Shown here one piece after another: positions 47,926-48,797 of a DNA stretch of 64,000 bases. The notes beneath the pieces were generated by a model. It ran no database searches, was not told the origin of the DNA, and was given only the letters and a program-made list of their open reading frames with translations. Within the stretch, counting starts at the first letter, position 1; the number at the start of each line of letters is the position of its first letter. Source of the DNA: an uncultured Oscillospiraceae bacterium. GTDB taxonomy: Bacteria; Bacillota; Clostridia; Christensenellales; CAG-314. The DNA is taken from contig CAZRBI010000001.1 of assembly GCA_964598315.1 (NCBI GenBank), forward strand, positions 90,574 through 154,573, given 5' to 3'. The translations under genes and the position numbers were made by a program.

Positions 47926-48408
47926 TTTATTTAACCTCCGCAAGTAAATTTTAGTAGAACTCTCTAATTCTTGTTTTTCCCTTCATCAGAACGAAGAAGG
48001 GGATTTTTTTATTGTTTTTAAGAGTAGACACCATCAAAGCTTTCGGCAGCACTTAGTTTTTTTTGTAGGCAACATCGAATTGGTGCGTTGAAATTTTGGC
48101 GGCGGCTTCGGGGCTTGCAGTTTGCGCGCCCTCTCCTTCCAGCCTAGACCGCCGCTAAGGCAGTAACGCCTAACGGCCTCAACGCTGTAGGCTACGAATT
48201 GAGCTTTAGTTTAAGATGCCGACAGAATTTTTTACCGGATAAATGCCGATAAGGCTGATTAATTTTAGCTTTTAAGACAAGATTTATTTTGAGAGATTCA
48301 TTCTGTCTAAGGCTAAACAGAGTCCGGGCATTTTAGCTGATAATGCATTTATTCAGTCTGAGCGGCTAATTTAGGCAATACTGCGTCCGCCCTACGGCGT
48401 TTTTAATG

Positions 48409-48446
48409 CTATCTATTCGCAAAAGCGGTGTTTTGCGAATAGATAG
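48409..48446. repeat. Perfect 16-bp inverted repeat
   Basis: CTATCTATTCGCAAAA / 6-nt loop GCGGTG / TTTTGCGAATAGATAG. Confidence 0.9.
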
Positions 48447-48756
48447 ATAGCACGCTTTTGCCCCATATTGCCAACACCACAACGGCAACAAATAAAGGCT
48501 GTCAAGCGTTTTGTTTATGTTCACGCCCCACGGCGGGAAGGATAAAGCCCGTCGCTTGCGACGGCAAAACGCTTTACGGCCGTTTACTGCAAGACACCAT
48601 TCCCCACGGGTGAAACAGCTTGCTGTTCCGCCCTACTTGCAAAAATAAAAACAAGATTTGGCAAAAGGCTTGGAACAGCGAAAAAGCAAGGCGGGGTAGC
48701 CGTTTTTCGCTGTCCGCTTTTGCCCTTGTGTTTGCAAGTGCGAGCACAAAATTGGG

Positions 48757-48797
48757 CGGGGTTTGCTAAATATACTGCGTCTATTTAGCAAACCCCG
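48757..48797 (+). repeat. Perfect 15-16-bp hairpin with 9-nt loop TACTGCGTC (candidate Rep nick site)
   Basis: (C)GGGGTTTGCTAAATA / TACTGCGTC / TATTTAGCAAACCCC(G). It lies 114 nt upstream of the Rep_2-type gene. The decamer ATACTGCGTC recurs at 48378-48387. Confidence 0.85.

Follow-up and report, generated by a model that had tools for sequence, protein, structure and literature searches.

A probable RepB-type nick hairpin and origin of a rolling-circle replicon integrated at the chromosome terminus of an uncultured Clostridia bacterium

In the rolling-circle plasmid pMV158, the initiator RepB nicks the sequence TACTACG/AC, which is exposed in the loop of the inverted repeat IR-I; the DNA must be unpaired to be cut (PMC1851628). 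Two GTGCCRA direct repeats abut the right arm of IR-I, the bind locus lies 84 bp downstream, and RepB also cuts single-stranded oligonucleotides bearing the 9-mer alone (PMC1851628). The complementary strand of such replicons starts at single-strand origins, which are structured regions of ~160 nt that fold when single-stranded and are primed by RNA polymerase (PMC5703833). Two further systems are relevant here. In streptococci, xerS adjoins difSL, a 31-bp site with an 11-bp central region (PMC5357621), the left arm of which (TTTCCGAAAA) binds XerS more strongly than the right (PMC5357621, PMC2965235), and CTXphi provides a precedent for tandem integration with production of single-stranded DNA (ssDNA) between two origins (PMC4439123). 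We have analyzed a stretch of 64,000 nt (hereafter the window) from an uncultured Oscillospiraceae bacterium, in which a gene for a RepB-like initiator (rep) is preceded by a conspicuous hairpin. We judge it likely, with a probability of roughly 0.75, that this hairpin (48757-48797) presents the nick site in the double-strand origin of a small replicon, copied by the rolling-circle mode and belonging to the RepB superfamily (pMV158, Rep_OBD), which is integrated at the replication terminus much like integrative mobile elements exploiting Xer (IMEX), and that a second copy of the nick decamer farther upstream has no role.

The hairpin, which lies on the plus strand, consists of a perfect 16-bp stem, formed by pairing of positions 48757-48772 with 48782-48797, that presents the 9-nt loop TACTGCGTC (48773-48781). 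Its arms read GGGGTTTGCTAAATA (left, 48758-48772) and TATTTAGCAAACCCC (right, 48782-48796) and are extended by one more C-G pair (48757/48797). A preliminary description of this DNA had placed a perfect 15-bp stem with a 9-nt loop 114 nt upstream of rep, which proved accurate except that the stem is 1 bp longer; the 114 nt separate the end of the stem from the ATG of rep at 48911. Folded as ssDNA, the hairpin has an energy of -17.2 kcal/mol (z = -7.0 when compared with shuffled sequences). Also as described earlier, seven of the nine loop positions are shared by TACTGCGTC and the pMV158 sequence TACTACGAC, and the hairpin stands upstream of rep with the nick sequence on the coding strand, as in pMV158. 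By analogy with TACTACG/AC, cleavage is predicted to occur, probably, between G48779 and T48780 (TACTGCG/TC).

The rep gene (48911-49504, plus strand) encodes a 197-aa protein that we assign to the RepB/pMV158-type HUH rolling-circle initiators on the basis of its Pfam match, catalytic residues, and predicted fold. It matches PF01719 (Rep_OBD, formerly Rep_2) with an E value of 3e-18 and a score of 66.6 bits, the gathering cut-off being 24.6. Residues H44, D47, H58, H60, and Y102 are invariant across 22 Rep homologues and, in a profile search of the PDB, align with the catalytic H39, D42, H55, H57, and Y99 of RepB. When an AlphaFold model of Rep (pLDDT 85.9) was compared with the PDB using Foldseek, the best matches were the RepB structures 3DKY, 3DKX, and 8AMU, followed by the Reps of CRESS viruses; the OBD superposes on RepB with an rmsd of 3.0-3.2 Å over 119-129 residues and a target TM-score of 0.67. 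Close homologues are scarce, only ~20 (58-87% identity) being found among 5.8 billion clustered proteins, all of them in metagenomes or metagenome-assembled genomes of Clostridia. A scan of GTDB representative genomes found no close relative of Rep, with a best identity of 36%, scans of viral and metagenome sequences added one close locus (L097; loci are designated by L numbers), and neither Rep nor a 283-aa open reading frame (ORF) of a neighboring element, discussed below, matched PHROGs or NCBIfam. Judged from these sequence comparisons, the hairpin is part of a new and rare RepB-type initiator subfamily.

Relatives of the hairpin were examined in a set of 12 distinct loci encoding close Rep homologues, which, apart from L097, we retrieved by exact-protein look-ups. 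In all 12 loci, a hairpin is found 96-157 nt upstream of rep; the sequences of the stems differ, and the loop is TACTGCGTC in 10 of them and TACTGTGTC in the other two (L097 and L182), which yields the consensus TACTG[C/T]GTC. Upon alignment of the stems, 94% of the cells are paired and compensatory changes are seen in 10 of 17 pairs. These values were matched by none of 500 shuffles, and slid controls were only 31-43% paired. The comparison of loops among homologous islands that had been proposed previously thus gives a simple outcome: both loop and hairpin are kept in the 12 loci. The motif extends to distant Rep_OBD loci (25-40% identity), in which the hairpin loops upstream of rep correspond to TACTACGAC, TACTACGTC, TACTGCGTC, or TACTATGTC; in distant L004, for example, a CTGCGTC loop is followed by five TTACACA iterons. 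The identity of Rep, the invariance of the loop, the covariation of the stem, and the loops of distant Rep_OBD loci all support the RepB-type nick site that the preliminary description had read into this hairpin, which very probably starts rolling-circle copying. Taken by itself, the hairpin is an ordinary feature of this subfamily, one that gives a precise predicted cleavage sequence, TACTG[C/T]GTC.

What follows 3' of the nick is laid out much as in the pMV158 origin and supports the nick-site reading: first come GTGCA repeats, then another inverted repeat, and, at 65-110 nt from the nick, a tract rich in repeats. The region adjoining the right arm (48798-48839, plus strand), recognized by its likeness to the pMV158 repeats, contains one GTGCA box (48804-48808), after which GAACAAAG (48816-48823) and CTTTTCAC (48831-48838) form a second, degenerate inverted repeat. 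Most relatives have two GTGCA/GTGTA boxes after the right arm and then a clean GAACA-N12-14-TGTTC inverted repeat. L094 has a tandem repeat of ~30 nt at 5858-5905, where the nick hairpin's right arm occurs twice together with the box after it. Farther downstream, the preliminary description had pointed to a C/A-rich tract with short repeats between the hairpin and rep. This tract (48840-48897, plus strand) is indeed present, with CACTACCCACCCAC and AACTACACCAC repeats, and its composition is conserved, since C and A account for 62-69% of it in 12 of 12 loci, all with CACCAC/CCACCC-type repeats (48840-48890 in the window). The repeats are degenerate, with no clean iterons in the window family, distant L004 having its five TTACACA. 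We regard the tract as a candidate bind locus, to which Rep might bind, and rep leader. It includes a small conserved hairpin with the repeats on either side, GCCAA-AACA-TTGGC (48861-48874), the counterpart of which in L096 is compensated (CCGCCG...CGGCGG), and is followed by a GGAG ribosome-binding site (48898-48901).

The similarity to pMV158 therefore concerns the Pfam domain, active-site residues, and predicted fold of the initiator, the position and strand of a 9-nt nick sequence in the loop of an inverted repeat (7/9 to TACTACGAC), the GTGC-type short repeats beside the right arm, the repeat-rich tract at 65-110 nt where pMV158 has its bind locus at 84 bp, and a highly structured region adjoining the origin. 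However, there are clear differences. The window Rep is only 15-19% identical to RepB in structural alignments, the loop reads TACTG[C/T]GTC, and clear 11-bp iterons are not evident. Moreover, there is no CopG/antisense-RNA control module here, the conserved partner of rep being instead an XRE-type helix-turn-helix (HTH) gene on the opposite strand, and the element is chromosomally integrated between dif-like sites.

As for these boundaries, the Rep module extends over ~48.41-50.65 kb; in it are found the structured region and the origin, followed by rep and the genes of two HTH regulators. The window becomes homologous to its relatives exactly at 48409, at a palindromic dif-like site that we name hairpin A (48409-48446, CTATCTATTCGCAAAA-GCGGTG-TTTTGCGAATAGATAG), which forms the left boundary of the module and its junction with a neighboring element. 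Hairpin A is a perfect palindrome whose arms are conserved in at least eight loci and whose spacer varies; the sequence to its left is unrelated between loci. At the other end, a dif-like site on the plus strand (50651-50680, ATTATTCGCAAAA-TATTGC-TTTGCAACCAT), identified by site comparison, finishes 20 nt before the ATG of a XerS-like gene and forms the right boundary. Both sites keep exact ATTCGCAAAA cores, and a left arm ATTATTCG[C/T]AAAA is found directly 5' of the recombinase gene in the window, in L096, and in distant L004. Near ynbB in the window, no left-boundary dif-like site was found within two mismatches of the 10-bp core. The spacer of hairpin A (48425-48430) is GCGGTG in the window, L091, L092, and L189, and its exact reverse complement, CACCGC, in L178 (1182-1187). 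As the Rep element of L178 has the opposite orientation with respect to the recombinase, the spacer seems to be oriented with the chromosome, not with the element. Two other readings of hairpin A, as a terminator or as a packaging signal, are disfavored by its conserved arms, its variable spacer, and its recurrence at element boundaries and beside the recombinase gene, all of which speak for a site of recombination.

The XerS-like tyrosine recombinase, assigned through NCBIfam and homology, is encoded on the plus strand (50701-51756, counted from the conserved ATG at 50701; its ORF is open from 50671) and abuts hflX. Its best NCBIfam match is XerS (NF003462), with an E value of 2e-52 and 178 bits, and it is 78-83% identical in L094, L096, and L178. 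The rep gene is always located between ynbB, a member of the Met_gamma_lyase family found 3' of mutS-mutL-miaA, and the tyrosine recombinase gene that abuts hflX-lexA, a position shared by Rep_OBD genes that are 29-100% identical. Up to ~44 kb, GC skew amounts to +0.1 to +0.25; it is near zero between 44 and 54 kb and -0.18 to -0.20 beyond, while long ORFs are all on the plus strand up to lexA (which ends at 53874) and on the minus strand from 54.6 kb, converging between lexA and an ORF ending at 54622. The switch in skew and the converging ORFs therefore place the locus at the replication terminus. The resemblance to XerS/difSL is clear: a single recombinase of ~350-360 aa with XerS as its best family match, a recombination-type site immediately 5' of its gene, a location at the terminus, and a left arm in the window (TTATTCGCAAAA) resembling that of difSL (TTTCCGAAAA) together with a weaker right arm. 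In contrast to that system, the recombinase scores under the XerS equivalog cut-off, the central region of the site is shorter, and the gene neighborhood consists of ynbB and hflX-lexA.

Several relatives resemble either the free or the integrated form of such a replicon. The two ends of L180 share the same 121 nt exactly, which is consistent with a 3.3-kb circle. Its genes are rep, preceded by the nick hairpin, an HTH gene, a sigma-like gene, and some small ones, with no integrase among them; an attP-like site, AATATATTCGCAAAG-TTCTAG(T)-TTTTGCGAATAGATAG, lies just before its structured region. The element in L094 is colinear with L180 and is bounded by hairpin A and a second site. In Butyrivibrio crossotus (L007, 32-9841), two 4893-bp copies of a Rep_OBD element, 100% identical, stand in perfect tandem and are delimited by three dif-like sites, ATTATTCGCAAAA-CACGAGC-TTTCTGCGCAATAG, an arrangement reminiscent of CTXphi arrays. 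Dif-like boundary sites are also found in the L107 and L109 elements, and the contig of L186, a 5.8-kb phage-like relative of the 283-aa-Rep element with extra unannotated genes, ends in a hybrid site in which the left arm and spacer of hairpin A are followed by divergent sequence. Taken together, the evidence from L180, L094, L007, and L186 indicates site-specific integration at the dif-like site, presumably by the host XerS-like enzyme, to which its best family match, its adjacency to the site, and the terminus position point indirectly. Since dif-like sites are present on both sides, the right one just before the XerS-like gene, the behavior of these elements would be IMEX-like, and the locus, as far as can be read from its sequence, consists of HUH-Rep elements integrated in an array at the terminus, next to a XerS-like recombinase gene. 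The L178 element, inverted relative to ynbB and the recombinase, has a ParE/Phd toxin-antitoxin pair (2669-3218) between rep and the HTH gene.

What is known of IMEX fits this locus in several respects. The elements are small, with a HUH Rep for rolling-circle replication and no integrase of their own; integration is at a dif-type site at the terminus; different elements form arrays separated by hybrid dif-like sites; and the tandem copies in L007 could give ssDNA between two origins, as in CTXphi (PMC4439123). However, the host here is from a lineage of Clostridia that is uncultured, the part of XerCD is presumably played by a single XerS-like protein whose gene adjoins the site, the Rep is a relative of the plasmid-type RepB, and the elements, known here from sequence alone, occur in both orientations. 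No account of elements that exploit Xer turned up in the searchable literature for either XerS-type systems or Firmicutes. The context thus suggests that uncultured Clostridia of the gut or rumen have, at the terminus, a dif system of the XerS-like kind with a single recombinase, and that plasmid-type rolling-circle replicons apparently integrate there, some in tandem and some beside ssDNA-phage-like elements. If confirmed, this would extend the IMEX concept to RepB-family plasmids and to Clostridia, make it possible to locate dif sites in these genomes, and provide tools for work with poorly tractable anaerobes, namely small replicons and HUH nucleases with new specificities.

The replicon would then work as follows. 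In supercoiled DNA, the inverted repeat would be extruded and expose TACTGCGTC, by analogy with RepB. Tyr102 of Rep, assisted by a metal ion held by H44, D47, H58, and H60, would cut the loop, probably at TACTGCG/TC, and the resulting 3'-OH would prime leading-strand synthesis toward rep. Priming of the complementary strand would rely on the structured 310 nt upstream of the hairpin, on a 190-nt element 3' of rep, or on both, and integration of the replicon at the dif-like site would be the work of the host XerS-like enzyme.

A number of observations weigh against this interpretation. The terminal repeat of L180 could reflect a tandem copy, not a circle; no empty site was found; and, with respect to the recombinase, elements are found either way round (L096 and L178), which simple directional integration does not predict. 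The dif-like arms are separated by 6-7 bp, versus 11 bp in difSL, and the recombinase, with 178 bits versus a NCBIfam XerS cut-off of 267, is XerS-like rather than XerS. A 31-nt block that includes the upstream decamer is 30/31 identical in L184/L185, where a lineage-specific constraint is possible. Other points concern the window copy itself. In comparison with the relatives, its first GTGCA box is degenerate and its second inverted repeat contains a mismatch, the sigma-like and 81-aa genes found in L180 and L094 are missing from it, and the divergence of its Rep module tracks that of the flanking housekeeping genes (~71% versus 73% DNA identity to L091), which fits long vertical residence. 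Because of the degenerate box, the mismatched repeat, and the missing genes, the window copy may be decaying or satellite-like, with an origin that no longer fires.

Pushed to its conclusion, this would mean that the origin has been read correctly and that the window copy is a relic, passed on vertically and now inert, or else a module that has been domesticated, which neither excises nor replicates and whose flanking sites are left-overs. The missing genes, the degenerate box and inverted repeat, and the parallel divergence all speak for such a scenario, as does a partial 470-nt duplication in the window copy. Against it, the rep ORF is intact with all of its catalytic residues, the nick hairpin is perfect, the cores of both boundary sites are exact, and the closest relative, L177, shows the same architecture. 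We therefore consider an inert copy possible, yet doubtful.

A second alternative accepts the Rep element and disputes IMEX-type integration: the recombinase next to rep would be a dedicated integrase that resembles Xer and belongs to a genomic island, with no part in host dimer resolution. Its score under the XerS cut-off would fit, as would the short spacer, unlike that of difSL, and PHROG integrase families match it as well. However, the recombinase gene is contiguous with hflX or overlaps it, its divergence is like that of the neighboring housekeeping genes, it is located where GC skew and ORF orientation switch, and the apparently circular L180 has no integrase. Moreover, different elements use the same type of site, namely phage-like ones with a 283-aa Rep and others with Rep_OBD proteins of 29-100% identity. 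A dedicated island integrase is thus unlikely.

A third possibility arises from the decamer ATACTGCGTC, which spans the nick loop. As stated in the preliminary description, it occurs a second time upstream in the same orientation: there are exactly two copies in the 64 kb, at 48378 and 48772, both on the plus strand with starts 394 nt apart (one further copy of the 9-mer TACTGCGTC, at 29273, is unrelated). From base composition, ~0.1 exact copies of the decamer are expected per whole window on both strands, and the estimate for a second same-strand copy within +/-1 kb is ~0.002; given these low values, the repeat is unlikely to be due to chance, with the reservation that it was noticed post hoc. 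The upstream copy (48378-48387, plus strand) is immediately followed, again as previously described, by a mini-hairpin, CGCC-CTAC-GGCG and T5 (48388-48404, plus strand), to which a terminator scan gives a weak terminator-like score, at the end of the neighboring element; it is kept as GCC-CTAC-GGC with a T-run in L184 and L189. According to the preliminary description, two co-oriented nick sites would let a Rep start at one and end at the other and could release ~400 nt of ssDNA. Applied to the two copies here, this model would give a circular ssDNA of 394 nt (48386-48779) containing the dif-like palindrome and the structured region. Besides the rarity and co-orientation of the two copies, the upstream one is predicted to be unpaired in local ssDNA, and RepB cuts 9-mers in single-stranded oligonucleotides (PMC1851628). 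Tandem CTXphi prophages, furthermore, make ssDNA between two co-oriented origins (PMC4439123). The decamer and mini-hairpin are also conserved in L184/L185, which encode a protein 78% identical to the 283-aa ORF at the same chromosomal position; this is weakly informative because background identity is ~80%.

These points are outweighed by others. The upstream copy has no flanking inverted repeat, and its local fold is no better than that of shuffles (z = -0.01); it could therefore not be extruded from duplex DNA, as is needed for RepB-type cleavage. It is placed 22 nt beyond the edge of the conserved module, within the end region of a neighbor that encodes a different HUH Rep, and a fork from the real origin would run away from it. 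No second copy of TACTGCG was found in the other loci (L091, L092, L094, L096, L097, L178, L179, and the apparent L180 circle), and all relatives in which the neighboring element is missing lack the decamer as well. The most telling comparison is provided by L189, which encodes a 61% homologue of the 283-aa ORF and whose contig overlaps that of L177, home of the Rep_OBD protein closest to the window Rep (87%), by 30 nt, so that the two belong to one genome. This genome has the same two-element layout, with an intact nick loop TACTGCGTC and ATACTTCTTC at the position of the decamer. We also tested 47944-48408 as a degenerate inverted or direct copy of the Rep module, with the decamer as a relic origin, and rejected this for want of similarity. 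Comparison with relatives and folding thus give no support to two co-oriented functional nick sites, and the upstream decamer is probably coincidental and devoid of a role. The proposed release of ~400 nt of ssDNA, which would require origin features and comparative support that the upstream copy lacks, is improbable, and we give the two-nick model as a whole very little chance of being correct. Two co-oriented nick sites of one Rep are seen only in the whole-element tandem of L007, and it is at that scale that two such origins may yield ssDNA from the integrated state.

There is also only a slim chance that the upstream ATACTGCGTC is a real secondary substrate of Rep at the junction of two Xer-integrated HUH-Rep elements, from which a 394-nt ssDNA circle carrying a dif-like palindrome with two strong arms and a priming structure would be excised or copied. 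If it were so, a gene-less minicircle could recombine at dif or titrate the recombinase, and an integrated rolling-circle element would have a new route to engage the host Xer system. The last alternative would make the hairpin not a nick site at all but a terminator or attenuator of transcription, or else a palindrome to which Rep or the HTH regulator binds as its operator. The position of the hairpin in the rep leader region and the ability of palindromes to serve as protein operators count for little against the missing T-run after the stem, the silence of the terminator scan, arms that vary and covary around an invariant 9-nt loop where an operator would keep its arm sequence, and the fit of that loop to the nick consensus across the Rep_OBD superfamily, which together make this alternative highly improbable.

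Between the dif-like palindrome and the nick hairpin, a multi-hairpin, structured non-coding region (48447-48756, plus strand) stands out by its fold energy, with a z of -9.8 on the plus strand and -8.2 on the minus strand over its 310 nt. It is found in eight of eight loci, at -60 to -76 kcal/mol versus -26 to -47 for shuffles; the plus strand is slightly favored in six of the eight, and the differences in energy between strands are small. It has no match to known motifs of single-strand origins, and a search of 47.9-50.7 kb against Rfam, at gathering and permissive thresholds, returned nothing relevant. Since MAFFT/RNAalifold could not align the 310 nt, recovering hairpin A alone, they provide neither proof by covariation nor a firm strand assignment. 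In Ff filamentous phages, the hairpins that precede the plus-strand nick hairpin are the packaging signal and the minus-strand origin. The region examined here similarly forms a run of hairpins directly before the nick hairpin of a HUH initiator; with no sequence similarity and no structural genes in the window element, the analogy is one of architecture only. A second structured element, of ~190 nt (49564-49778, no strand assigned), is found 3' of rep, with a long closing stem (49564-49590/49718-49744) around two hairpins, and overlaps the 3' end of an HTH gene. It folds far better than shuffles, its closing stem covaries in L091 and L094, and it has no Rfam match; a second copy (50033-50248), 91-97% identical, follows with a period of 470 nt. 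By analogy with known systems, either the 310-nt region or the 190-nt element could be a single-strand origin.

The HTH gene in question (49738-49950, minus strand) encodes an XRE-family regulator that, according to homology and synteny, is the conserved partner of rep on the opposite strand. A second XRE-family HTH gene (50208-50414, minus strand) is part of the 470-nt duplicated unit. Between the two genes (49960-50038) are three 20-nt boxes with the palindrome ATTGAG-N5-CTCAAT, which are probably repressor operators.

On the other side of hairpin A, the remnant of the neighboring element (45115-48408) contains four XRE-type HTH genes, a zinc-ribbon ORF, and the gene for its Rep (47092-47943, minus strand), the 283-aa HUH protein with the motif REHYHAIV, more distant homologues of which carry PF23343. 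The stretch between this gene and hairpin A (47944-48408) is the upstream region of the minus-strand ORF. The idea that the 283-aa ORF is a homologue of the 230-270-aa sigma-like proteins of other elements was rejected by test. Elsewhere in the window, a T-box leader is found at 23488-23702 (Rfam RF00230, 115 bits).

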